DNA of 14,047 nt from an uncultured archaeon (GTDB lineage Archaea > Asgardarchaeota > Thorarchaeia > Thorarchaeales > Thorarchaeaceae). The position numbers were made by a program, and so were the translations under genes. The notes beneath the pieces were generated by a model, which saw only the letters and a program-made list of their open reading frames with translations, made no database searches and was not told the DNA's origin. Shown here piece by piece: positions 379 through 14,047 of this stretch (position 1 is the first letter of the stretch; every line of letters begins with the position of its first letter). The stretch covers positions 1 through 14,047 of the forward strand of contig CAZYLT010000031.1 in assembly GCA_964648855.1 (NCBI GenBank). The letters run 5' to 3'.

Positions 379-429
379 TTGCCAATGAACCAGAAGAATT
401 GTGGGACGAGAAAACCGGTGCAATCGTAG

Positions 430-480
430 AGGTTGCTCCAGAAAACGGAGTCTCCCTTTTGGTCACGCTGTTGAGTACCT
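430..480 (+). repeat. Module-boundary repeat, copy R1
   Basis: AGGTTGCTCCAGAAAACGGAGTCTCCCTTTTGGTCACGCTGTTGAGTACCT; aligns without gaps to R2. Confidence 0.92.
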
Positions 481-591
481 CTCCAATTTTACACAAGTTA
501 ATTCAAGAAGAGCAGACACTAGATCTTACCCGGTGATTTCTTCAGGGTATGAATGTCGCCTCTGTCGAATGGTCGTGGAAGTGGTGGCAAA

Positions 592-1374: not shown

Positions 1375-1504
1375 TTTCATTTCTGGTTTGATCGGTACAT
1401 CTAAAGAGAGCAAGAATTTGTTCTTGTGACAAGAAACGAGTGCCCTTGTAGATAGAAACACGGTTAAAGGTTTATTCATGCCTCCTCATTGTGATACATT
1501 GGAT

Positions 1505-1798
1505 ATGCCTGTTGTGGCAGCCTGCATGGGGGCACTGCAAACCGAGAATATGAAACTCATTCTACCCTAGGTTCCCAAGAGTGCTGAAGATGAACTCGAA
1601 GAAGCATTCGCCATTACTTTTAATAGTAGATGGCATTCCACACACAACAAGAAGCAATTGATTTTCTTAATGATTCAGCATTTTCCTCTGGGAGATACTA
1701 CTGCTCCGAAAGCGACTGATCTGTGGAACAAGCCGGAAGAGGTGAACTCCTTCATCCATAAGAAGCGTTGCTACATTTCGAATTCTGACATTGTCTAG
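1505..1798 (+). pseudogene. Possible small gene (98 codons including final stop) interrupted by one in-frame TAG at 1568-1570
   Basis: ATG 1505 lies ~30 nt after a TTTATT box (1471-1476); the frame continues 75 codons past the TAG. No recognisable family. Confidence 0.3.
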
Positions 1799-1960
1799 AA
1801 CAAATAGATACAATCATCACGTTTGGATTGACTTATTATTCAAAGTCTATATTCGAACAAACGTTTTATTGGTAGACAGCCTTATTCTTCAGGAGAAGAA
1901 GCACTTCTTCTTGGAAACTTGGATATTTGAAGTAGCTTGTGAAGCGGCAGGGGATTACCT

Positions 1961-4453
1961 TTGAGCACCATGAAACTCCATCGACAAATTAGGAATTATC
2001 TCATTGGGCTATCTCTAATCCTAGTAATGTTTGGTGTAGTTTTGCAGGTAATCATCTTCAATTATGACATAAGTAATCAGATGGCTCAATCAGAATACGA
2101 GTCAGCACTTGAAGAATATGCAGAAAACAACATATACTATTCTCCTGGCGACGTTGTTCAGTATGTCCGAATTCGACAGAATCCATCAGGTTATTTTGTT
2201 CTAAACCCCGATTTAGTCTTCGAACCCTCGGAATACAATCTCAATACGCTAAAGGCTACACGGTTCTCTGTTATCACACTCAACACGCTGAACCAAACAA
2301 GTGCAATAAATGAAAATGCTACTGTTAACTATGTAATGAGTAACTATGAGAACTATTCAACTCCAGAAGGCACGTTCACCGGTTTCTCAAAATACGAAGG
2401 ATATAGCGCAGGTATTAGGAGTACATGTGACGCGTTAATGACGCTTGAAGCTCTTGATGCACTAGATACACCGACTCTTGACCTCAATTCAGTTGAGCAA
2501 TTCATTCTGCATCATCAGAATCTCGATGGGGGATTTTGGGATGACGACTACCCCCAGTATGGCACAAACTCCACACTTCTTGCCACTTCATTTGCTATGC
2601 GGTCCCTAGGAAGAATCTATCAGTTCCAAGGACGTGAATTCAATGAAACAATCAAGGAAATGATAGCAGAATTTGTCACTGATTGTTTTGATGAGTCTGA
2701 TGCAGGATATGCGAATGAGCCTGGAACCGACTCAACTGACTCTTATGGTGTCTTCAGAGCATTCATCTCATTATGGTGGCTTGAAGGGAGCGATGAAGCC
2801 TCAAGAAGAAGCTACATTGATCAGAATATGGATTTGGGGTCCACTGTTTCCTATTTGTCCAATAATTTATTTGATAATGAAACAGGAGCATTCTATCTGA
2901 ACGAAAATGATGGATTCGACCAGACGTCATTGAAAAGCACCCATCTCATGGTATGGTTTTTTACCGCTTTGAATCGGGATTGGATGCTCAATGTGACTGC
3001 CCTCGGTCATTATTTGATGAGTAGAGAGGTCACGCCAGGTCAATACGGTCCAGACATATATTCCACTTATGCCGCTGTCTTAACTTTTGTCCGTTTGGGG
3101 ATTTCAACAGAACCACTGCCTGTTCCAACACAACCGGCTCTGGTATCACTTGAATATCTTGGTGTTTTCCCATTCGTCATACTATCATTAGGAATCATCT
3201 CAATGACTTCGGCCTATTATTTTCAACATAATGCAATAAAAGCGGAACAATCACAAAGCGAATACCTTGAAAGAGAGGTGGAGAAGCGAACCAAAGAGTT
3301 GCAAATGGAGATTCGTAACCATGAGAAGACACGGGCTGACTTGGAAGAGAGTGAATGCCGCTATCGACGCCTGTTTGAGGACTCCCCGCTATCTCTCTGG
3401 GTAGAGGATTATTCCGGAGCCAAGAAAATATTGGACGACTTAGTAGACTCTGGAGTAACAGATCTCCGCACGCATCTAAGCAAGAACGAGGAGGTACTCT
3501 TACGCTGTGCAGATGCGGTTCAAATCTTAGATGTCAACCAAACAACGCTGACTCTTCATGGGCTCTCCAATAAGAATGAGATTATAGGTCCAGTGTCTCA
3601 AGTCCTGAATCGTGATTCGCTTCCTGTATTTCTCGATCAGATTTTGGCACTGCATTCTGGGCAATTATCATTCGAAAGCGAAATTGAGAATCTCCTCGTT
3701 TCAGGTACGGAAAAGGCACTGATATTAAAGCTCAGCGTACTGCCTGAAAATGAAGATACATTATCAAGGGTGCTTCTTACGATAATTGACATCACGGTGA
3801 GAAAGAGAGCTGAGGAACGTGTCGCAGCTTCGCTAGCAGAAAAGGAATTGCTTCTGAAGGAAATCCACCATCGGGTCAAGAACAATATGCAGATTATCTC
3901 TAGCCTGCTCCATCTTCAGTCTAGTAGGATTGTGGATACTGAAGCAGCCCTTGTACTCCGGGAGAGCGAGCACCGTGTAAAATCAATGGCCATGATTCAT
4001 GAAGCACTCTACCGCTCTGACGACTTGGCTAGGATTGATTTTGAGAAATATATCCACGATCTTACCCGGAACATACTTTTGTCTTTCGGGTCTAGCTTGA
4101 ATAACGTATCATTGAACGTGAATATCAAGGAGAAGTATCTCGATATCGCTATTGCTATTCCATGCGCATTGATAATTAATGAGTTGGTTTCAAACTCTGT
4201 TAAGCATGCCTTTCCTGATGATCGCCCAGGTGAAATCACAATTAGCTTTATAGCCGTTTCTGAAGACATTATGGAGCTATCCGTGAGTGATAATGGAATA
4301 GGGGTGCCCGATGACTTTGACCTGAAAGAAAGTGAAAGCCTAGGACTGAAACTGGTGACTCGCCTAGCGGAGAGGCAACTTAATGGCGCACTATCCTTGG
4401 AGTTGACTGATAAGACGAAATATATGATTCGATTCAAGAGGGGGGGCATCTGA
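1961..4453 (+). CDS. Membrane sensor histidine kinase: TM - prenyltransferase/squalene-cyclase-like repeats - TM - PAS - HisKA_2 - HATPase_c
   Basis: Hydrophobic N-terminal helix; repeats such as [14 protein letters not shown] and [18 protein letters not shown]; second TM ([16 protein letters not shown]); [12 protein letters not shown] entry; H-box [18 protein letters not shown]; [17 protein letters not shown] and SLGLKLV boxes. Alternative start ATG 1970. Confidence 0.92.
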
Positions 4454-4457
4454 AGGA

Positions 4458-6650
4458 ATGGCGGCATCTGCTCATATCATGATTGTGGAGGATGAGGCTA
4501 TAGTAGCTCTAGAAATGGAGGAACTATTGAAGAAATATGGATATGATGTTGTGGCTTCAGCACCTTCTGCTGAGAAGGGTTTGAAAGCGTTGTCACATCT
4601 CAAGCCTGACCTAGTATTGATGGACATCAGATTGAAAGGCGCTATGACTGGAATTGAAGCAGCAGAACATATCCTTAATAATTATTCAGTCCCAGTCATT
4701 TTCATTACAGCATATGCAGATGAAGAAACAGTAAAACAGGCTAGAGCCGCATCACCGTATGGCTATTTACTCAAACCACTCCGGACTGAAGAACTCCATG
4801 CATCAATCCAAGTTGCGTTGCACAAGTTCGAAGCTGACCAAGTAGTGATGACAAAAGGGGAGCACTTCAGACTTTTTTTCGAAAATCTTCCATTTTACTG
4901 TTACATGGTGACGATAGAAGGAAATATTCTAGATGTTAATGCTTTTGCATTGAACACCTTGGGCTATTCAAAAGAAGACTTGAGAGGAAAATCAATTGCC
5001 AGCATCTACACTGCTGATGATACAAGTAGAATAAGAGGGAGGCTACTCGGTTTACAGGATGGTTATACCATAGAAAATGAGGAAACCAATATCATTACAG
5101 CGGAAGGCAGGCAAAGAACGGTTCTTGAAAGCGTGGCTACAGTTCCAAGTGGCCAGCAAATCTTTGCCTTGGTCATTCAGAAGGATATTACCCAGCGAAA
5201 AATGGCGGAGGATAAGCTATGGAGGAGTGAAGAAAGATATGCCGAGCTCTTTCATCGAACAAAAGATGCCATTCTAATAAGGGATTTGGATGGCAACATG
5301 CTTGAAGTAAATCAAAGTGCTGTTGATTTATTCGGTTTCTCAAGGTCTGAATTCCTTCGTACAAAAATCACAAAAATAGCTGATGTAGAGCTTGTTCGAC
5401 ATGTTGAGAAGCGAATAGAAAAAGAAGGTTGGTGCAGAATTGAGGCACCTCTTACAAATAAGTCTGGGGAATCTTTCGATGCAAACATTACATCAAATCT
5501 AATCAAGCTTGGTGAAGAAAGAATTGTCCAAACAATTATAGAGGATATTACGGAACGCAAGCGGGCCGAAGAAACCCTGCGAAAGAGTGAGCAGAAATAC
5601 AGGAAACTGATTGAAAACTCAGTTCAGGGTGTCGCTATCTATCAAAACGATTCCATCGTGTATTCAAACAAATCATTTGCAGAAATCCTAGGTTACTCAG
5701 TCGATGAGATATTGGGCTTGAAAAGAGATGAAATAGAGGATATGATTCATCCTCATGATCAAGAACAGTTAATGAATCAAATCCAGAAGGTGTTGGAGTC
5801 CGATGGACCCCCTGTTTACTATGAGTATCGTGCTTTTCACAAGGATGGACCGCTACGATGGGTGGAATGCAGCTTATCACATATTGAACATAATGATGAA
5901 AAGGCAATTCAAATTGCTCAAATAGATAATACGAGTAGAAAGATGGCTGAGAATAAAGTAGAAGAGGAACGCGACCGAGCAGAGCTCTTTCTAGATTTGA
6001 TGGGCCATGATCTATCAAACATTCATCAAGCTGTTTATGGCCTCCTTGACCTTCTACTAAGTAGCGGAGAGCTATCTGAAAGCACTACTGGCCTTCTCAT
6101 GGAAGCTCTCGACCAAATGAATCGGTGTACTCGTCTTATCCGTAATGTAAAAAAAATACGGGGGATAGAAGAGCTTCCTTCGCAGCTCAAACCAATTAAT
6201 ATATCCTCGGCGATATCACAGGCAGTATCCGAAGTCCAAAGGGATATTCCGCATAAACAACTCAATATCAACATGGATAATAAATTGCGGGATGCATCAG
6301 TTATTGCTGATGAAGACCTTGCCACTGTTTTTTACGAACTACTTCATAATGCATTGACGTTTGATAGGGATCAGTGTGTCGAAGTTGATCTAACAATTGA
6401 TCAAGCCAATGGTGATGAGCTGGTCAGAATCCAATTGGCTGATAGAGGAAGTGGCATTTCTGACACGGAAAAAGAACGGTTGTTCATGAGAGAATCGGCC
6501 ACAAAGACCAAACATCGTAGAACTGGCCTTGGTTTGACTCTGGTGAAACACATAATTAGTAGGTATGCAGGCTCAATATACATAAAAGATAGAGTTGAGG
6601 GAACCTACAAAGAAGGCGCAGTGTTTGTTCTAGAGATTCCAAGAGCATAA
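4458..6650 (+). CDS. Hybrid signalling protein: receiver (REC) - 3x PAS - histidine kinase (HisKA/HATPase_c)
   Basis: IMIVEDE...DLVLMDIRL...FITAY...YLLKP receiver motifs; three PAS units ending DITQRK/DITERK/DNTSRK; LMGHDLSN H-box; ELLHNA, DRGSGI and TGLGL boxes. 4-nt gap after the upstream kinase suggests an operon. Confidence 0.93.
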   Translation: MAASAHIMIVEDEAIVALEMEELLKKYGYDVVASAPSAEKGLKALSHLKPDLVLMDIRLKGAMTGIEAAEHILNNYSVPVIFITAYADEETVKQARAASPYGYLLKPLRTEELHASIQVALHKFEADQVVMTKGEHFRLFFENLPFYCYMVTIEGNILDVNAFALNTLGYSKEDLRGKSIASIYTADDTSRIRGRLLGLQDGYTIENEETNIITAEGRQRTVLESVATVPSGQQIFALVIQKDITQRKMAEDKLWRSEERYAELFHRTKDAILIRDLDGNMLEVNQSAVDLFGFSRSEFLRTKITKIADVELVRHVEKRIEKEGWCRIEAPLTNKSGESFDANITSNLIKLGEERIVQTIIEDITERKRAEETLRKSEQKYRKLIENSVQGVAIYQNDSIVYSNKSFAEILGYSVDEILGLKRDEIEDMIHPHDQEQLMNQIQKVLESDGPPVYYEYRAFHKDGPLRWVECSLSHIEHNDEKAIQIAQIDNTSRKMAENKVEEERDRAELFLDLMGHDLSNIHQAVYGLLDLLLSSGELSESTTGLLMEALDQMNRCTRLIRNVKKIRGIEELPSQLKPINISSAISQAVSEVQRDIPHKQLNINMDNKLRDASVIADEDLATVFYELLHNALTFDRDQCVEVDLTIDQANGDELVRIQLADRGSGISDTEKERLFMRESATKTKHRRTGLGLTLVKHIISRYAGSIYIKDRVEGTYKEGAVFVLEIPRA

Positions 6651-6761
6651 CCCCTCGAACCGAAATAGCAAAATTATGTCCCACAGGATTAATGAAAAAT
6701 TTTGAAATCTCTCTGAGCAAAACAAGCGTTTTCCATATCATATTAAAAGGGTAGAAGCTTG

Positions 6762-6941
6762 CTATTCAATACCGATGCCCTTTATTTCTTCTGAAATTGT
6801 TGGGGCAGGTTTTTCTCCATCTGTCGTAAGTGAATTGGAAATGGGCTCAACTATGGTCCTGTTTTCCGCCCAAGTAACTAAGATATCCACGCCCACCTCA
6901 AGAAATGATGTTACGGTGTCAGGAGTAGAACGAGGGAGCAT
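6762..6941 (-). pseudogene. Decayed AbrB/MazE-type antitoxin paralogous to 13181..13435
   Basis: Translates TSFLEVGVDILVTWAENRTIVEPISNSLTTDGEKPAPTISEEIKGIGIE* vs TSGLEVGMDILITVEGDKIIIEPIPDPISLAIHGKKFASTNLEEIEEISHEQ. N-terminus is lost and there is a premature TAG. Confidence 0.75.
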
Positions 6942-6981
6942 GAGCGACCTGGCAAAATGGGCTCTTTAATCTGACAAGGTG

Positions 6982-7032
6982 ACCGTATTCTAGAGATGTC
7001 TATTCTCTTACAAGCCGTGTTGCTGAGCCCCC
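6982..7032 (+). repeat. Module-boundary repeat, degenerate copy R3
   Basis: ACCGTATTCTAGAGATGTCTATTCTCTTACAAGCCGTGTTGCTGAGCCCCC followed by TTTCGATTTTTCAT; closest to R5 (TCTAGAGA...TCTCTT...TGAGC.CC.T.TCGATTTTCAT). Confidence 0.6.
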
Positions 7033-7147
7033 TTTCGATTTTTCATTTTCATGCGTTTGAAAGAAGTAGATGCTAGATTTTGCTGAGTGATCCCCTTGAA
7101 GAAGAGTCTTTCTCCTCATGACTTCCGTCTGACAGAAATTATGCAGA

Positions 7148-7177
7148 TTTATATACTCATATGGTAACTAAGTAACT
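7148..7177 (+). promoter_or_regulatory. TATA box with ACTCAT motif and GTAACT direct repeat
   Basis: TTTATATACTCATATGGTAACTAAGTAACT immediately upstream of the antitoxin gene. Confidence 0.55.
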
Positions 7178-7179
7178 CG

Positions 7180-7467
7180 GTGTTGTCGGTGTCGACAGTG
7201 AAATTTGATTTGCAGGATGACCTGGAGGAGCTGCAGGCTCGGCTTTACCTTGACACTCGGAAACGGCTCAGCAAGAAAGAGGTCTTGGAACTGGTGTTCA
7301 GAATCGGCAAGGAAAACTACGACCTTATCGTGAGAGAAGTTCAGTCCGGAGAAGTCCCTCTGAGCGATGAAACGATTCGAGAGGTACTCTCTTTGGCCGA
7401 GGATTTAGGGCCGGGTAGCGAAGACCTATCATCAAGCGTGGACGACATTGTATATGGTGGAAGCTGA
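7180..7467 (+). CDS. Putative antitoxin (small protein with acidic C-terminus upstream of VapC)
   Basis: 95 aa; C-terminal EDLSSSVDDIVYG resembles VapB toxin-binding tails; 2-nt gap to the PIN gene. GTG 7189 is a possible alternative start. Confidence 0.8.
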   Translation: MLSVSTVKFDLQDDLEELQARLYLDTRKRLSKKEVLELVFRIGKENYDLIVREVQSGEVPLSDETIREVLSLAEDLGPGSEDLSSSVDDIVYGGS

Positions 7468-7469
7468 AG

Positions 7470-7892
7470 ATGGCGGTCCTTTTAGACAGTAATGTGATCA
7501 TTGCATTTCTCAACTCACGCGACAAGAATCATACCGCCGCCAAAGAATTACTTACAAAATTGAAGCATCCAGAATATGGTATGCGAGTCACAATTGATTA
7601 TGTGCTCGACGAAGTACTGACAGCTTTGTGGATGCATACCCGCCGTAAAGACGTAGTTAAAAAGGCACACCGATTCATTCGAAACACGCCCGAATTCATT
7701 CGATTCGATTATGTCAAATCTGATATCTTCGACTTGGCCTGGAGAAAATGGGAGAAGGTAGCCAGCTGGCCCAAGAAACCCTTGAGCTTCACTGACTCAT
7801 GCATCCTATCCTTCATGGAAAGGCACGATATTGAGTACTTGGCAAGTTTCGATTCAGACTTTGACGGACTCGTTTCTCTAGTGCTCAGTTGA
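7470..7892 (+). CDS. vapC: VapC PIN-domain toxin
   Basis: LLDSNVIIA...DKNH...YVLDEVLT...LSFTDSCILSFM...LASFDSDF. Confidence 0.93.
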   Translation: MAVLLDSNVIIAFLNSRDKNHTAAKELLTKLKHPEYGMRVTIDYVLDEVLTALWMHTRRKDVVKKAHRFIRNTPEFIRFDYVKSDIFDLAWRKWEKVASWPKKPLSFTDSCILSFMERHDIEYLASFDSDFDGLVSLVLS

Positions 7893-7971
7893 AAATAAGT
7901 CCCACTTTTTTCCGTTGTTCAAACTCAATCCACATTGGCACCATCGGGTTTGACGTAATGCAGTGCAACGT

Positions 7972-8021
7972 AGGTTATTCCGGAAACGGAGTTTTCCTTG
8001 CGCGCGCGCTGTTGAGCGCCC
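7972..8021 (+). repeat. Module-boundary repeat, copy R4
   Basis: AGGTTATTCCGGAAACGGAGTTTTCCTTGCGCGCGCGCTGTTGAGCGCCC. Confidence 0.88.
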
Positions 8022-8079
8022 TATCATTTTTCATATTTCAATGCAGAGAGAGCATAATAGATCTAATCGGGAGAGGGCT

Positions 8080-8099
8080 ATGAGTTTATATTTACTCAT
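8080..8099 (+). promoter_or_regulatory. TATA box flanked by inverted repeat ATGAGT/ACTCAT (probable operator)
   Basis: ATGAGT-TTATATTT-ACTCAT, ~30-45 nt upstream of ATG 8127. Confidence 0.65.
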
Positions 8100-8126
8100 G
8101 CACATACATACACAGAAGTGAGGATA

Positions 8127-8363
8127 ATGGGATACAAAACCATATCACTCTCGGTCGAGGCCTACAAGATTCTTAAGAATGCCAAGAGGGAAAACGAGAG
8201 CTTCAGCCAGGTTGTGATTAGGCTCGCAGGTAGACGCTCACTAGATGCCTTTGTTGGATGTATCTCCAAGGAATCAGTCGAGAAACTGTCAGATGCCATG
8301 AACACATTCCGAAAAGAACGTGGAGAAGTGTGGTCTCAGAGCATGAAAGAACTGACGGGATGA
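8127..8363 (+). CDS. vapB: Antitoxin, archaeal VapB (DUF217-like) family
   Basis: MGYKTISLSVEAYKILKNAKRENESFSQVVIRL; SD GTGAGG upstream; precedes a PIN gene. Confidence 0.9.
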   Translation: MGYKTISLSVEAYKILKNAKRENESFSQVVIRLAGRRSLDAFVGCISKESVEKLSDAMNTFRKERGEVWSQSMKELTG

Positions 8364-8370
8364 GGTCATT

Positions 8371-8763
8371 GTGATAGCTGACACATGTTTCATTATCGAC
8401 CTCATGCGAGAGAATGAGTCTGCGCTCAAGAAACTGGCACAGATTGAGAAGAACAATCGTCTACAGTACATAACTGTACCATCGGTCATGGAGCTGGCAG
8501 TCGGTGTAGCATTAGCGAGTCTACCCGCAAGAGAGCGTGAGAAAATCGATGAAATTCTTGGAGGCTTTGATATCGTTCCCTTTGATAGTTTATCCGCGTG
8601 GAAAGCAGGAATTGAAGTGGGTAGACTGAGAAGGGGTGGGCATATTGTTGACCCGATTGATGCACAGATTGCCGGAATTGCCCTTCAACATGACGAGTCT
8701 ATAGTGACACGAAATCTAGCGCATTTTGAGCTATTTAAGACCCTGAGAGTTGAACCCTACTGA
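8371..8763 (+). CDS. vapC: VapC PIN-domain toxin
   Basis: IADTCFIID...SVMELAVG...DPIDAQIAGIA...IVTRNLAHF. Confidence 0.93.
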   Translation: MIADTCFIIDLMRENESALKKLAQIEKNNRLQYITVPSVMELAVGVALASLPAREREKIDEILGGFDIVPFDSLSAWKAGIEVGRLRRGGHIVDPIDAQIAGIALQHDESIVTRNLAHFELFKTLRVEPY

Positions 8764-8814
8764 TTCCTTGCAATTAATCAGGGGAATTGCATGAAGAAAC
8801 AACCGGAGCAACAT

Positions 8815-8866
8815 AGGTTGCTCTAGAGAGCAGAGTTTCTCTTTACGCGCATGCTATTGAGCACCT
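8815..8866 (+). repeat. Module-boundary repeat, copy R5
   Basis: AGGTTGCTCTAGAGAGCAGAGTTTCTCTTTACGCGCATGCTATTGAGCACCT. Confidence 0.9.
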
Positions 8867-9065
8867 TCTCGATTTTCATCTACCTATTCAAAAGGAGTGA
8901 AAACTAGGACTTGTTCGATAGTTTGTTCAGCTCTTAGGGTCCGTCGTCAAAGTCTTCTGTAGCTGTTCATAATTCTTATACCATCTGCATGTCATGATGT
9001 GGTGACAGTCTTGCATTAGCGCCCGTATATACTCAGTCAACACATTTTCTGAACGATTGGCGGGC

Positions 9066-9299
9066 CTAGATACCAAGCAATTCCTCGATTTCTTCCTGTG
9101 TCGGCACTCGTCCGGAGATCTTAACATCACCATCTATAGCAACAGCGGGGGTCATTAGTACCCCTCTTTCCACAATCTCATCAATCTCATTGACCTCTAG
9201 GAGATCAGCGGCATAGTCATTTTCTCTCAGGGCCATCTCGATGTTTTTCTTAGTAGCTTTACATTTTGCACAACCAGTTCCAAATACTTCAATTTTCAT
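9066..9299 (-). CDS. Small redox-active disulfide protein (Thioredoxin_3 / MTH895-like), ars-associated
   Basis: MKIEVFGTGCAKCK CxxC motif; GVLMTPAVAIDG...SGRVP; GGAG SD upstream of ATG 9299. Confidence 0.92.
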   Translation of the reverse strand: MKIEVFGTGCAKCKATKKNIEMALRENDYAADLLEVNEIDEIVERGVLMTPAVAIDGDVKISGRVPTQEEIEELLGI

Positions 9300-9310
9300 T
9301 TCATCAACTC

Positions 9311-10390
9311 CTAAATCCACATTCCATAGAGGAGCCCAGCTGCAATACTGAAGGTGATTAGCAATAGACCGTAAGCTATGGTTCTTGCAGGCCTCATAAT
9401 CTTATTCACAACAAGTAAGGTCTGTAAAGATACAGCTGGATCTGCAATCAAATATGCCATGAGCGGTCCGGGGTGCATACCGAGCTGGAGAAACATATCG
9501 GCAATAGGAACCTCGACTAGAGTCGGGAAGTAGGCTATTGTTCCGAACAGAACGGCAAAAGTATTTCCAGCTAGACTATTCGTTCCGGCAAGAGCAACGA
9601 TTAATTCGGCTGGCACAAGGGGTCTAATCAAGCCAGATATGAGAACACCGACCAGAAGAATCGGAAATAGCATCTTGATGAATCGCCGAGTTTCAGTCAT
9701 CCAGTGACCCAGTTCCCCTCGGCTATAGAACATCAAAGCAATTATTGCTGTTATGATTGTACTGACCGAGACCAAAATGATTTTGCTAAGCAACTCAACG
9801 GGTGCAGTTCCAAAGACCATCACCATCGTCAGAGATGTGAAAAATGCTGCAGATTGATATGTGCTCCGTTCTTTTGTCTCTTCTGTTTTTGTTCCATCAG
9901 GTGTCATCAACTCAGATGATGATAGGTCCCGCTTCTCTTTGAATATAAGATCCATGGAGACCCCAATGGCAATGGCAATCACAATGGAGATGAGTAACTT
10001 GATGATGGCAAACTCTGGACCGATTACTGCGGCTGTGAGTGGCGTCGACAGCAAAGTGATTCCCGGACCAGCAAACAAGAATGTGATTGCGGGCCCAAAA
10101 CCCGCTCCCTTCTTCCAGATTCCTGCGAAAAGAGGGAGTATTGTACAGGAACATACCTCCAGAACAAGCCCACTTGTAGCAGCGAAGATATAAGCTACAG
10201 CTAGATGCATCCGATTCGTAGAGCTACCCAAGTACTTTGTGATTGTACTCTTTGGGATGAGAGCACTGAAAGCACCTGATATAAAGAATGCAGGTATGAG
10301 ACACAACAGAACATGCGCTGACAGGTAGTCCCAAAGGGTTTCGAGACCTGAAAGCAGGATGGTATAGAGAATGTGTTGCATCTGGGTCAA
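9311..10390 (-). CDS. arsP: ArsP / DUF318 family permease
   Basis: AHVLLCLIPAFFISGA, VCSCTILPLFAGIW, GPAITFLFAGP, YFPTLVEVP, GPLMAYLIADPAVSL motifs; multiple TM helices; typical neighbour of Thioredoxin_3 and ArsR. Confidence 0.88.
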   Translation of the reverse strand: MTQMQHILYTILLSGLETLWDYLSAHVLLCLIPAFFISGAFSALIPKSTITKYLGSSTNRMHLAVAYIFAATSGLVLEVCSCTILPLFAGIWKKGAGFGPAITFLFAGPGITLLSTPLTAAVIGPEFAIIKLLISIVIAIAIGVSMDLIFKEKRDLSSSELMTPDGTKTEETKERSTYQSAAFFTSLTMVMVFGTAPVELLSKIILVSVSTIITAIIALMFYSRGELGHWMTETRRFIKMLFPILLVGVLISGLIRPLVPAELIVALAGTNSLAGNTFAVLFGTIAYFPTLVEVPIADMFLQLGMHPGPLMAYLIADPAVSLQTLLVVNKIMRPARTIAYGLLLITFSIAAGLLYGMWI

Positions 10391-10405
10391 CTCAATGGAA
10401 TAATC

Positions 10406-10421
10406 ATCGAATAATCTCGAT
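10406..10421. promoter_or_regulatory. Candidate ArsR operator upstream of arsP
   Basis: ATCGA-ATAATC-TCGAT dyad; ATCGAATAAT recurs as its reverse complement at 12288-12297 upstream of acr3. Confidence 0.55.
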
Positions 10422-10774
10422 AAATAAATAATAAATATGTTGGTGGGTACATCACATCAGAAAGTGTAAGGCCTCTCAATTGGCTAGATAGAAGAGAAAT
10501 CATGCAAGAGATTTAGAGCGATAGTGCACTGTACGTGGACAGCTTGCCCTATGAGAGCAACCTTTGTGGGGTTACTCAGCAAGACGAGGTCAATGAAGAG
10601 TTAGGTCGTGTCTATGAAGCAAACGGTTAGACCTTCACTCAAATGATGCCATTTGAAATTGATACTCTGTTTGACGATGCTAGATAGGTTTTCGTTTTCT
10701 ATCTAATAATCGTCCAGCAAGATGGTATCACTTATACCATCAGTTGATTCCACGATGGTGCTTTGCCTGTCGTT

Positions 10775-11068
10775 TCATTTTACCATGTCAGGTGCAATTG
10801 CCCGTGTCTCATTGATGATATCTTTAATACGAGCGTCACTGATTTTGTATAGTTTTCTGGTTCCATCTTTTCGCTCTTCCAGTATTCCCGCCCTGACCAA
10901 CTGAGCCAGATACGCTGAAACTGTTGACTGAGCAAGGCCCATTTCGGGAAAGATTTCACACTGACATACCTCATTTTGAGCAATAATATCTAAAATCTCC
11001 AGTCTATTAGAATTGCTGAGTGCCTTGTGAAACTCTACTCTCCAATTCGTCACTTCATCAGTAGCCAT
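10775..11068 (-). CDS. arsR: ArsR/SmtB family metalloregulator
   Basis: HKALSNSNRLEIL...EVCQCEI...LAQSTVSAYLAQLVRAGIL...RKDG; ELCVCD-like metal-binding box. Confidence 0.93.
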   Translation of the reverse strand: MATDEVTNWRVEFHKALSNSNRLEILDIIAQNEVCQCEIFPEMGLAQSTVSAYLAQLVRAGILEERKDGTRKLYKISDARIKDIINETRAIAPDMVK

Positions 11069-11113
11069 TCATTATCCCATCTCTCCATAAGCTTGTGTAC
11101 CTATTCAAGATAT

Positions 11114-12220
11114 CTACTCACGAGGCTGCAAAGGCTCTCCTTTCCAGAACCGCTTCCTGCGCAAGTATCTGGCAAGATAGACCAATCCAAGCATGACTGG
11201 AACTTCCCAAAACAGACCCATTGTGGTACCTAGGGCTGCGATGGATCCAACACCATACATGGAGACTGCGGTTGCGATTGCTATCTCAAAGTGACTGGAA
11301 GAACCTATAATCACGCTGGTCACGCCCTCTTCATAGGCCAGACCCACTGTCCTCGTAATGAGAAGGTTGTAACCAACCACAATGGCAAAACCCAACAGTA
11401 AGGGTATTGACACCAAGACAAGCAGGTCGGGATTCTCAAGCATTACCTTTCCATTCAGTGAGAAGAGCACGATCAAGGTCACAAGTAGGGCAATCAAACC
11501 GACCTTGCCTACTGCTGGCCTGTATCTATCATGGAACCACTCAGCTCCTTTCCGATCAATAAGAATTTTCTTGCTAGCCACTCCGAGTAACAGGGGGGCT
11601 CCAATGAAGACAACAACAGAGATGACCAACAACCACTGGTCTATGGCGATAGATGAAATTCCTGTGAACAGAGCGACAACGGGGGCATAGAGCACCATAA
11701 TTGACACCGTATTAAGACTTGTATTGATAATATTCTGTTCTTGATTGCCCTTAGCAAGATAACCCCAGACCAATACCATGGCTGTGCAAGGGCTTGATGA
11801 AAGCAAGATGATTGCTACTATCAATTGCGGATTGCCACCAAGAAAGAGGTTCGCGAGTGCTACTCCAACCGAAGGAGCCACAACCCAATTTGAAAACAAC
11901 GTCAAAATGATTGGCTTTGGGTTTCTCCCTAGGTTCTTCAGTTCCTCGCCTTCAATATTAAGCATAGAAGGATACATCATCAAGAAGAGACTGATTCCTA
12001 TAGGAATCGAGATTCCTGCAACTTGTAGCTGGTCAATAGCCACGCTGACTCCAGGTACTGTCAAGGCCAACACAATGCCAATGGCCATACAGATGGCTAC
12101 CCAGAGGGGCAGGTATCTCTCGAAGAGACCTAATCCGACTTGCTCTCTGATATCTTCCTCACTTACTGATTCAGCTTCGACATACGCTGGCTCTGCAGGA
12201 TTTTCTTCGCTCATTTCCAT
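11114..12220 (-). CDS. acr3: ACR3 family arsenite efflux transporter
   Basis: FERYLPLWVAICM, MMYPSM, SPCTAMVLVWGYLAKGN, GSSSHFEIAIATA, EVPVML Acr3 signatures. Confidence 0.95.
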   Translation of the reverse strand: MEMSEENPAEPAYVEAESVSEEDIREQVGLGLFERYLPLWVAICMAIGIVLALTVPGVSVAIDQLQVAGISIPIGISLFLMMYPSMLNIEGEELKNLGRNPKPIILTLFSNWVVAPSVGVALANLFLGGNPQLIVAIILLSSSPCTAMVLVWGYLAKGNQEQNIINTSLNTVSIMVLYAPVVALFTGISSIAIDQWLLVISVVVFIGAPLLLGVASKKILIDRKGAEWFHDRYRPAVGKVGLIALLVTLIVLFSLNGKVMLENPDLLVLVSIPLLLGFAIVVGYNLLITRTVGLAYEEGVTSVIIGSSSHFEIAIATAVSMYGVGSIAALGTTMGLFWEVPVMLGLVYLARYLRRKRFWKGEPLQPRE

Positions 12221-12265
12221 GTAACCTCTTTGTCACCTTTATCGTGTCAATGTACACTACAATCA

Positions 12266-12297
12266 ATCGAATATTCTAATTATTTATATTATTCGAT
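12266..12297. promoter_or_regulatory. Candidate ArsR operator overlapping AT-rich promoter of acr3
   Basis: Inverted repeat ATCGAATA (12266-12273) ... TATTCGAT (12290-12297) around an AT-rich core. Confidence 0.55.
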
Positions 12298-12406
12298 ACA
12301 ACGTGCGACTACTACTGCAGTCCAAACTATATTCTGCTTATCAGTGCACAGTTGGAGGGGAACCCCAACTAAAATGACTTGATAGGAGCTCTTGACACTG
12401 CAAAAT

Positions 12407-12457
12407 AGGTTGCTACAGAAACGGAGTCTCCCTTTACGGTCATGCTGTTGAGCACCC
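12407..12457 (+). repeat. Module-boundary repeat, copy R6
   Basis: AGGTTGCTACAGAAACGGAGTCTCCCTTTACGGTCATGCTGTTGAGCACCC. Confidence 0.92.
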
Positions 12458-12559
12458 ACTCTGCTTTGAGTGCTGATCCTTGGATTTCCAGAAAATACAT
12501 ATGAAAATGGTTAGAATCAAATATTGAATGAATATTCAAACGTCAGGAAGGGCAGTAGG

Positions 12560-12742
12560 ATGACGCACCGAATAAGAATCTCCCAAGAGGCATATGACCT
12601 GCTTGAAAGTGAAAAGCGCCCTGATGAATCATTCAGTGATGTTCTTCGCCGACTAATAGGGCGGTATGAAAAACGGGAGTTTGCAAAAAGAGAAAAGTCT
12701 ATTTTCAAGAATGAGGAATTCAAGTCTTTCGACAAAGAGTAG
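12560..12742 (+). CDS. vapB: Orphan VapB (DUF217-like) antitoxin, short
   Basis: MTHRIRISQEAYDLLESEKRPDESFSDVLRRL has the same signature as 629..871 and 8127..8363; no toxin follows on the same strand. Confidence 0.75.
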   Translation: MTHRIRISQEAYDLLESEKRPDESFSDVLRRLIGRYEKREFAKREKSIFKNEEFKSFDKE

Positions 12743-12765
12743 TCGGCTATGGATACCAGCCTTAA

Positions 12766-13218
12766 CTAAAGCTCCTTCGGGAATAACAGAACATCTTCAA
12801 TCTCATTTTTGGCAACGAACTTGGAGAATTCAGTATCAATGGTTAGGAATTGTTGCTGGTTTCTAAGAGCTGTTGCATAGAGTAGGTTGTCAATCATATC
12901 TGAATGCCCCATTTGGAAGAAATCAAGAGCTATCATATAATCATCGGGGCCTGTTGAGACCGCATTATAGTGACCGGTCTTCGTAATACTCAGAAGCCCT
13001 CTTCTGAAGAGGGTCTTTTGATAGGTGTCTTGTTTGATTTGCTGTATCGCGACCCAGCTACTCTCAAGCAGACTCCAGTGAGAGTAGAAGAGCTGAACCT
13101 CCTCATGATTCAGCCTTGGAATGACCTCCATCACTTCATGTTCGACCTCGACTCCAAGAGTTGGAAGCAGGAACGATGTATCAAGAAGAATTCTCTGTAC
13201 GCTCTGATTGTTGTTCAT
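12766..13218 (-). CDS. vapC: VapC PIN-domain toxin
   Basis: ILLDTSFLLP...SLLE...GHSDMIDNLLYATA...FLTIDTEF; overlaps the 3' end of its antitoxin. Confidence 0.9.
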   Translation of the reverse strand: MNNNQSVQRILLDTSFLLPTLGVEVEHEVMEVIPRLNHEEVQLFYSHWSLLESSWVAIQQIKQDTYQKTLFRRGLLSITKTGHYNAVSTGPDDYMIALDFFQMGHSDMIDNLLYATALRNQQQFLTIDTEFSKFVAKNEIEDVLLFPKEL

Positions 13219-13435
13219 GGCTGATTTCCTCTATTTCTTCTAAATTCGTTGATGCAAACTTCTTCCCATGAATGGCAAGTGAAATAGGATCGGGAATTGG
13301 TTCAATGATGATCTTATCTCCTTCCACCGTGATCAATATATCCATCCCCACCTCAAGTCCGGATGTTTCAACCACTGCCTTTGGAAGGTAGATTGTATGT
13401 TTCTTTCCGATTCTACTCTCAGTTGTCAGAACCAT
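13181..13435 (-). CDS. AbrB/MazE/SpoVT-type antitoxin
   Basis: SRIGKKHTIYLPKAVVETSGLEVGMDILITVEGDKIIIEP swapped-hairpin signature; AGGTGA SD favours ATG 13435 (alternative 13441); TTTATAT box at 13496-13490 on the minus strand. Confidence 0.9.
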   Translation of the reverse strand: MVLTTESRIGKKHTIYLPKAVVETSGLEVGMDILITVEGDKIIIEPIPDPISLAIHGKKFASTNLEEIEEISHEQQSERTENSS

Positions 13436-13559
13436 AGTCATTCACCTGACTTTCAACCATTTTCCTGACAAATTACTTAATTTCAGGGCATATAAAGTCA
13501 TAGAATCCATATAGGCCCCAATTAACAGGCACATGAGCGTGTTAATGCGCGAACGAATA

Positions 13560-13609
13560 ATGGTTTCCAAAACGGAATGTCCCCTTAGGGTCACGCTGTT
13601 GATCATTCC
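13560..13609 (+). repeat. Module-boundary repeat, divergent copy R7
   Basis: ATGGTTTCCAAAACGGAATGTCCCCTTAGGGTCACGCTGTTGATCATTCC; shares AAAACGGA and GGTCACGCTGTTGA with R1. Confidence 0.8.
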
Positions 13610-13741
13610 TCTTTTTGGGTCAGTAGTGAGAAATGAATACATCCAACTGTCAGTTCTTCAGATATCCGCTCATCCTTTCCAACCAAGATATTTGGTCATT
13701 TGGAGCGCCGGGTGAATTCTTGATAAAACGTTTCTGACAGA

Positions 13742-14047
13742 TTGAGTGACCTCACCGTGTCTGAAACTTCTGTGTTCCACCCTTCCCCTGCCAGCGTCAC
13801 CGCCTCCAGCATGCCCGAAGGCTGCTGAGTCAGCAGGGGCTTTGTCCATGTTCATCGGGATGGGATCCCTCCCATGGTCCTGATCTCTTCCTCCTGTGTA
13901 TGTCCTGAGGCATCACACTCAGCCACAGGGAGGCTTTCCACAGTTCTTACCACGGCGGGTTCATGATCACCCATGCTAGCTTCGTCACCGAAGTCAGCAA
14001 GGCTCGCCTGAGCATGGTGAACAGCCGCGGACTCTCCGGGGGCTGAT
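13742..14047 (-). mobile_element. Probable right end of an IS200/IS605-like (TnpB-type) element with structured RNA, truncated by the window edge
   Basis: Abrupt rise in GC content; many hairpins; minus strand ends ...GGTGAGGTCAC-TCAA (TCAC/TCAA are typical right-end tetranucleotides). No transposase or RuvC motif is visible in the window. Confidence 0.45.
13852..14046 (-). CDS. C-terminal tail of a gene entering from beyond the window (possibly TnpB-like)
   Basis: Open frame SAPGESAAVHHAQASLADFGDEASMGDHEPAVVRTVESLPVAECDASGHTQEEEIRTMGGIPSR*, with no diagnostic motif. Confidence 0.45.
   Translation of the reverse strand, partial: SAPGESAAVHHAQASLADFGDEASMGDHEPAVVRTVESLPVAECDASGHTQEEEIRTMGGIPSR

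Follow-up and report, generated by a model that had tools for sequence, protein, structure and literature searches.

Integrative elements insert at tRNA and tmRNA genes, at whose 3′ ends att sites are duplicated and elements accrete in tandem. The pdif modules of Acinetobacter plasmids are bounded by 28-bp Xer sites that alternate in orientation and need XerC/D. The leader and trailer of archaeal pre-16S rRNA pair into a helix that is cleaved at a bulge-helix-bulge (BHB) motif. Finally, archaeal integrons, mostly CALINs (clusters of attC sites without an integrase), are reported to be enriched in Asgard archaea, and the archaeal attC sites listed for them have canonical bacterial-type ends, xxCTAAC...GTTAGGC (Ghaly et al. 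2022, PMC9668308). Here, we analyzed a stretch of 14,047 nucleotides (the window), which makes up the entire contig C31 of a 3.1-Mb, 62-contig metagenome-assembled genome (MAG; G000) that is 94.6% complete. Similar to integron arrays and CALINs, all sites point one way with a small cassette on the 5′ side of each, toxin-antitoxin pairs make up many of the cassettes, cassette order varies among relatives, and exchange maps to the 3′ end of the site, to a conserved motif that contains GTT. Unlike in those systems, we found no IntI, no R″/L″/L′/R′ symmetry and no stable single-strand hairpin, and the site is a copy of the trailer of a host rRNA. The duplication of the 3′ flank of a stable-RNA gene at the joints and the growth of the array beside that gene resemble the integrative elements of tRNA and tmRNA genes, although here the 16S trailer is the target, an integrase is missing, and the units are small and reshuffle in the manner of cassettes. 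The array also recalls pdif modules in that short recombination sites flank small units, commonly toxin-antitoxin pairs, that occur in many contexts; it differs in having direct repeats as sites and no detected tyrosine recombinase.

A repeat search combined with MAFFT and nhmmer identified a repeat of ~75–100 nt that is present in the window as six good copies and one decayed copy, all in direct orientation on the same strand, with four further copies on contig C29 (minus strand) and one on contig C19. The nhmmer E-values of the window copies (1e-13 to 1e-17) place the family far beyond chance; over all copies they ranged from 1e-12 to 1e-17, except for two on C29, one cut by the contig end (E = 2.8e-07) and one at C29:15545–15604 (E = 3.4e-05). 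The block under study, R1 (417–491, plus strand, as are all blocks of the window), carries the core CTGTTGAGTACC at 468–479, followed by oligo-T, and scored 64.5 bits with a sequence-only covariance model (CM R1). Block R2 (1310–1385; core CTATTGAGCTCC at 1362–1373) scored 72 bits with this model, R4 (7960–8033; core CTGTTGAGCGCC at 8009–8020) 67.4 bits and R5 (8804–8878; core CTATTGAGCACC at 8854–8865) 63 bits, while the core of R6 (12393–12468) lies at 12445–12456. The decayed block R3 (6990–7045) retains a core-like GTGTTGCTGAGCC at ~7017–7029 and was aligned to the block at 4488–4550 of contig C4 in the sister genome G001. Block R7 (13543–13617; core CTGTTGATCATT; 48 bits), the final block of the array, is the most diverged copy, is 95% identical to G001:C4 8465–8539 and has a flank in common with it up to position 13721. 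Genome copies were limited to the three contigs and always lay in array orientation, which is not the pattern of a MITE- or REP-type repeat (both orientations, terminal inverted repeats or target duplications), and the core 12-mer occurred elsewhere in the genome as one chance match in unrelated sequence.

Every copy adjoins the 3′ side of a gene unit, and the copies are spaced 0.8–6.6 kb apart in a single orientation. On the plus strand, R1 follows a partial cassette (1–416) with an open-ended ORF (3–245) and a PIN C-terminal fragment, and it is followed by a VapBC cassette (492–1309; VapB 629–871, PIN 880–1284; Pfam PF02697 and PF01850). The large cassette behind R2 (1386–6989) contains a remnant of a DUF6448 gene (1468–1613), a histidine kinase (1961–4453) and a receiver-PAS-kinase gene (4458–6650). 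Next come an ORF-plus-PIN cassette (7046–7959; 95-aa ORF 7180–7467, PIN 7470–7892), of which a copy with 84–85% identity is found in G001:C4, and a second VapBC cassette (8034–8803; genes 8118–8363 and 8371–8763), which two relatives (G026 and G012) carry beside other neighbours. Two of the six cassettes in the window are encoded on the opposite strand, namely the arsenic-resistance cassette (8879–12392; thioredoxin-like gene 9066–9320, ArsP 9311–10390, ArsR 10775–11068 and ACR3/SBF 11114–12220, assigned by Pfam) and the MazE/AbrB-PIN cassette (12469–13542; genes 12766–13218 and 13181–13441), which is 95% identical to G001:C4 7330–8645. The units on C29 comprise McrBC, an operon of NurA-HerA-Mre11-Rad50, an RHH gene next to an ORF without a Pfam match, a Fic unit, and a block of peptidases with a GNAT gene. 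The NurA-HerA-Mre11-Rad50 operon (C29 8627–15310) sits between two trailer copies like an 8-kb cassette and has almost no counterpart at the DNA level in the sister genome.

The repeats are all duplicates of one sequence, the 3′ trailer of the genome's single 16S rRNA gene. The only 16S gene extends from C19:30672 to ~32266 (RF01959, 1279 bits), and the copy on C19 begins ~53 nt past the 16S 3′ end (...CACCTCCT), directly 3′ of the mature 16S rRNA; the true 3′ end, that distance upstream of the copy, reads ...ATCACCTCCT. The trailer takes the same position directly after the 16S gene in G001 and G026. Certain array copies match the trailer from ~+25 past the 16S end to ~40 nt beyond the core, and the left extent differs from copy to copy. 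Block R6, from GGTTGC on, is the copy closest to the genome's own 16S trailer, with a variable segment identical in type. The array of G026 shares its contig with the 16S gene and is located downstream of it, and some of its copies include the last bases of that gene; in G001, the 16S contig terminates within the trailer block.

The repeat core GCTGTTGAGCA pairs with TGCTCAACAG in the 16S leader. Leader TGCTCAACAGTGTG and repeat CATACTGTTGAGCA form 14 consecutive pairs and, further in, leader CCCGTCTAACCTCGTCA pairs with trailer TGACGGGTTAGCGG. This extended leader-trailer duplex had an energy of −68.7 kcal/mol compared to −41 ± 5 kcal/mol for shuffled sequences (z −5.6), and the cofold of leader and trailer reached −118 kcal/mol, with two side hairpins on the trailer strand (GCAAC-GTAG-GTTGC and TCCG-AGAA-CGGA). 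Because the core pairs with the 16S leader, what had been described as a GTTRRRY integron core is the 3′ strand at the base of the pre-16S processing helix. The C19 copy thus corresponds to the 3′ strand of the archaeal pre-16S processing stem, while the array copies differ from it in that they have no leader partner nearby. We also considered the conservation of the core across genera as a sign of selection on the cassette copies and rejected this, as 16S trailers conserve the core and the copies were partly found via the core.

The initial annotation had proposed that the repeat folds into a nested, bulged hairpin with compensatory changes, as expected of an attC-like folded substrate. The R1 sequence on which it was based is identical to positions 430–479 of the window, yet the nested hairpin as a conserved attC-like fold obtained neither energetic nor covariation support. 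When both strands of the six window copies were folded as single-stranded DNA, z-scores ranged from +0.6 to −2.9 against dinucleotide shuffles, and only R5 stood out, through its local hairpin GAGCAAC-ATAG-GTTGCTC (the strongest of any copy, z −2.9) rather than through the nested fold. As RNA, the window copies gave z +0.4 to −2.6, with minimum-energy folds that varied among copies. Over 31 model-aligned copies, the nested hairpin was paired in 72.3% of cells compared to 71.0% in shuffles, and its covariation value was 0.102, with slid controls reaching up to 0.098. RNAalifold predicted 0 pairs on 27 diverse copies from several genera, and −4.9 kcal/mol on the copies of this genome. As to the compensatory changes reported for R5, TAG/CTA does replace CAG/CTG there, but R2 has CTA with an unchanged CAG and is therefore uncompensated; the second element, GGAG-T-CTCC, is impossible as a hairpin as its loop would be 1 nt. 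The overlapping second dyad at the left end fared better, GCAAC-GTAG-GTTGC being the best-supported local hairpin: together, the two local hairpins were paired in 81.2% of cells versus 75.8% in shuffles (0 of 500 shuffles reached the observed value), with a covariation of 0.151 versus at most 0.082 in slid controls, which is modest support. Overall, conservation lies in the sequence of the core and not in structure. The dyad symmetry is mostly inherited from the pre-rRNA pairing with the 16S leader: the left arm TGCTC-CAG resembles the leader TGCTCAACAG and can for that reason pair with the core. The nested hairpin would accordingly be a by-product, not a folded recombination substrate.

These results bear on the reading of the repeats as attC sites of an integron or CALIN that are recombined as folded single-stranded DNA by an IntI acting in trans, which we consider extremely unlikely; membership of the attC family is already refuted. 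The layout of a cassette array rich in toxin-antitoxin cassettes would suit such a system, as would the reported enrichment of CALINs in Asgard archaea (PMC9668308) and the fit to GTTRRRY of GTTGAGC, which sits in the crossover zone at the repeat's 3′ end. The GTTGAGY motif is indeed present in R1, R4 and R6, as had been noted; R2 and R5 have ATTGAGC, R7 has GTTGATC and the decayed copy has none, so that three of the seven window copies carry an R′-like motif, and simple arithmetic gives a chance of ~1 in 10 for GTTRRRY on either strand of a 60-nt element. The annotation had also rightly remarked that a canonical RYYYAAC is lacking: no such partner pairs with the core, and the sole candidate at the left end, GTGCAAC (RYRYAAC), showed no covariation with the right end (152 and 123 of 500 shuffles reached the observed values). 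An attC-like alternative with an outer stem of GGTGCAAC and GTT..GCACC was rejected for want of covariation. The attC reading is further contradicted by a hairpin no more stable than shuffles, the missing RNAalifold consensus fold, the homology of the repeat to the 16S trailer and the failure to find IntI or any other tyrosine recombinase. In addition, the published archaeal attC sites are canonical, and the core string is absent from the data sheets and supplements of that study (PMC9668308).

Another explanation is that the copies are kept mainly for a role at the RNA level, either termination at the oligo-T or pairing in trans with the 16S leader, and that recombination is incidental. In most copies the core is followed by an oligo-T run, as would be expected of an archaeal terminator, the cassette copies remain partly complementary to the leader (z −2 to −6), and the two local hairpins have the modest covariation described above. 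We nevertheless regard this as improbable, given that the two opposite-strand cassettes cannot be terminated by the block downstream, that no fold is common to the copies and that an Rfam search over the window at E ≤ 1 yielded no match.

The existence of an IntI or another tyrosine recombinase in the host, as an attC-like substrate would call for, was not borne out. A profile search of G000 for PF00589, TIGR02249, NF040815 and XerA returned no match while 14 of 14 control genomes matched, and tblastn with five tyrosine recombinases from relatives as queries gave a best E of 0.054; these negatives rest on a MAG that is 94.6% complete, and an unbinned element may carry such a gene. Resolvase-type serine recombinases and Y1 (Y1-HUH) transposases were likewise not found in G000, and two Cas1 genes are located on contigs C32 and C42. 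Within the taxonomic family, a tyrosine recombinase was detected in 16 of 41 genomes, where it lies on contigs other than the block-bearing ones, and in none of the searched genomes of g1 and g12, the genera with the best arrays. G000 and 25 of the 41 family genomes have no detectable tyrosine recombinase, XerA included, whereas all 14 controls have one. The ORFs flanking the arrays (G001:C4 800–1957 and C19 10210–11430) were inspected as a shared recombinase and discarded, being unrelated to each other and without a Pfam match.

Alternatively, the copies could have been left behind by integrase-encoding elements that used the 16S trailer as their target, accreted in tandem and later lost the integrase genes. 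Such a history would agree with three features: every joint carries a duplicate of the 3′ flank of a host RNA gene, the copies in genus g12 include the last bases of the 16S gene, and the most distal block is the most diverged. Against it stand the lack of a recombinase gene, of an integrase beside an att site or of a remnant thereof in the annotated arrays, the location of tyrosine recombinases in relatives on contigs that carry no blocks, cassettes as small as 0.8 kb and their reshuffling, and a scan of viral contigs with the block pattern that gave no match. We therefore judge this history unlikely, if slightly less so than a role at the RNA level.

These cassettes also occur in related Thorarchaeota, arranged in different orders and beside different neighbours, and resolvable context switches fall in or directly beside CTGTTGAGCACCC. 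The MazE-PIN region (window 12443–13721) is 95% identical to G001:C4, while the block preceding it differs between G000 and G001 in both its left part and its variable segment, which places the switch inside GCTGTTGAGCACCCA. Cassette A of G026 and G012 begins to be identical exactly at CTGTTGAGC, behind two unrelated block types, and the cassettes follow one another as A, B, C, D in G026 and as C, A, D, B in G012. Many block pairs have only the left flank or only the right flank in common, including those of the VapBC and ORF-plus-PIN cassettes of the window. Junctions are bracketed to GCTGTTGAGCACCCA, which contains GTT, at a resolution coarser than the single bond of the integron G/TT crossover. 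Part of the proposal that the repeat is a recombination substrate thus holds, in that the repeat marks cassette joints and the resolvable exchanges map to its GTTGAGC right end, and what falls away is the attC-like fold.

The blocks are themselves mosaics in which the left part and the variable segment reassort. The 10–12 nt preceding the core vary most, confirming that the 3′-arm bulge is the least conserved part of the repeat. Compared to the 16S trailer, a C29 block (C29_7053) matches at 25 of 26 positions of the left part and 3 of 12 of the variable segment, while R6 matches at 17 of 25 and 11 of 12, respectively, and the ‘TCATGTG’ type of variable segment is combined, across three genomes, with three or more different left parts. 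Exchange or conversion must hence also have occurred left of the variable segment, within the conserved AAACGGAGTYTCCCTT.

We favour, at slightly less than even confidence, homology-guided exchange by host recombination over attC/IntI recombination, based on the mosaic blocks, on left ends that vary from copy to copy and on the missing recognisable recombinase. The trailer copies would supply movable stretches of homology on which the recombination machinery of the host acts: two copies may recombine so that a cassette is excised as a circle with one copy, and any other copy could then take up the circle again. The conserved stretches flanking the variable segment, mainly the 13–14-nt core and also AAACGGAGTYTCCCTT, would be where crossovers and short conversion tracts resolve. 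Counting against this scheme, the copies within one genome are not homogenised (63–90% identity), so that recombination among them is rare.

In G026 and G012, a block of the G000 type is joined at the core to a different downstream type, with ~14 nt of identity available on the left side. This is very short for ordinary homologous recombination and weakens the homology-guided explanation; a site-specific enzyme fits such a joint better and stays as a rival. The 13–14-nt core (CTGTTGAGCACC) would then be where crossovers are made by a dedicated recombinase that escapes current profiles, with the rest of the block as its recognition arm, which we hold to be a less probable but substantial alternative. 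Equally tentative is that such an enzyme would be neither of the tyrosine, serine nor Y1-HUH type, making the system an analogue of integrons built independently on the flank of the 16S rRNA gene. The core lies within every resolvable junction, block-type chimeras meet there with ~14 nt in common, all copies have one orientation, and the family largely lacks XerA-type enzymes, so novel ones may exist. Moreover, the core is intact behind opposite-strand cassettes, as in R6, where it cannot terminate the preceding cassette, which hints at a sequence-specific constraint. On the other hand, no candidate gene recurs beside the examined arrays, the mosaics show exchange also left of the variable segment, the conservation of the core across genera may come from 16S trailers constrained by leader pairing, and the stretch AACGGAGT is conserved as strongly as the core among G000-type copies.

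A search with the sequence-only covariance model found the element only inside the same taxonomic family. Tight arrays are present in G001:C4 (six copies ~1 kb apart), G008:C44, G012, G026 and G022, while G035 has three matches at least 10 kb apart, and distant genera match in the right half only. Metagenome contigs scanned with the block pattern gave three matches only, each covering ~31 nt of the model. A full-text literature search returned no description of cassette arrays bounded by 16S trailers. What is new here is that the ‘integron core’ is the partner of the 16S leader, that resolvable exchanges map to this core and that the copies are mosaic. Integron-like arrays in archaeal MAGs need not be based on attC sites, and the dyad symmetry and the ‘integron core’ seen here are inherited from pre-rRNA processing signals. 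If exchange between trailer copies proceeds as outlined, accessory genes of Asgard archaea, among them toxin-antitoxin, metal-resistance and defence genes and the NurA-HerA-Mre11-Rad50 set, would land and be shuffled at the tail of an essential, highly conserved rRNA gene, and a route of gene flow distinct from integrons would exist in the closest prokaryotic relatives of eukaryotes.

Several further observations were made in and around the array. Two inserts of ~30 nt are present close to the 3′ end of the 16S gene compared to the usual ...GTCGTAACAAGG... and ...GGATCACCTCCT, at C19 ~2999–3028 and 3059–3086 and, in the sister genome, at G001:C9 258–290 and 320–347 (coordinates of the locus records); the second insert is absent from genus g12. 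The ars genes (window 9073–12163) have 72–74% identical counterparts on contig C53 of G001 with the halves arranged differently, and no block copy was detected on that contig. The decayed PIN C-terminal fragment at 259–380 duplicates 8644–8765 and is 84% identical to the intact gene at 8371–8763, and the decayed DUF6448 remnant (1468–1613) is 83% identical to G001:C4 3869–4014. The N-terminal region of the histidine kinase at 1961–4453 matches the PF00432 prenyltransferase alpha-alpha toroid (residues 65–192), an unusual sensor domain. Beyond the flank of R7, a multi-copy element (13722–14047) that matches at least nine places in G001 at 73–92% identity breaks into the array's distal flank and extends to the contig end, and it is also found at the far end of C29. 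The break in homology between G000 and G001 at 13722 was considered as a cassette joint with a degenerate core and rejected, as it is the edge of this element, which is probably an IS or MITE-like repeat outside the cassette system.
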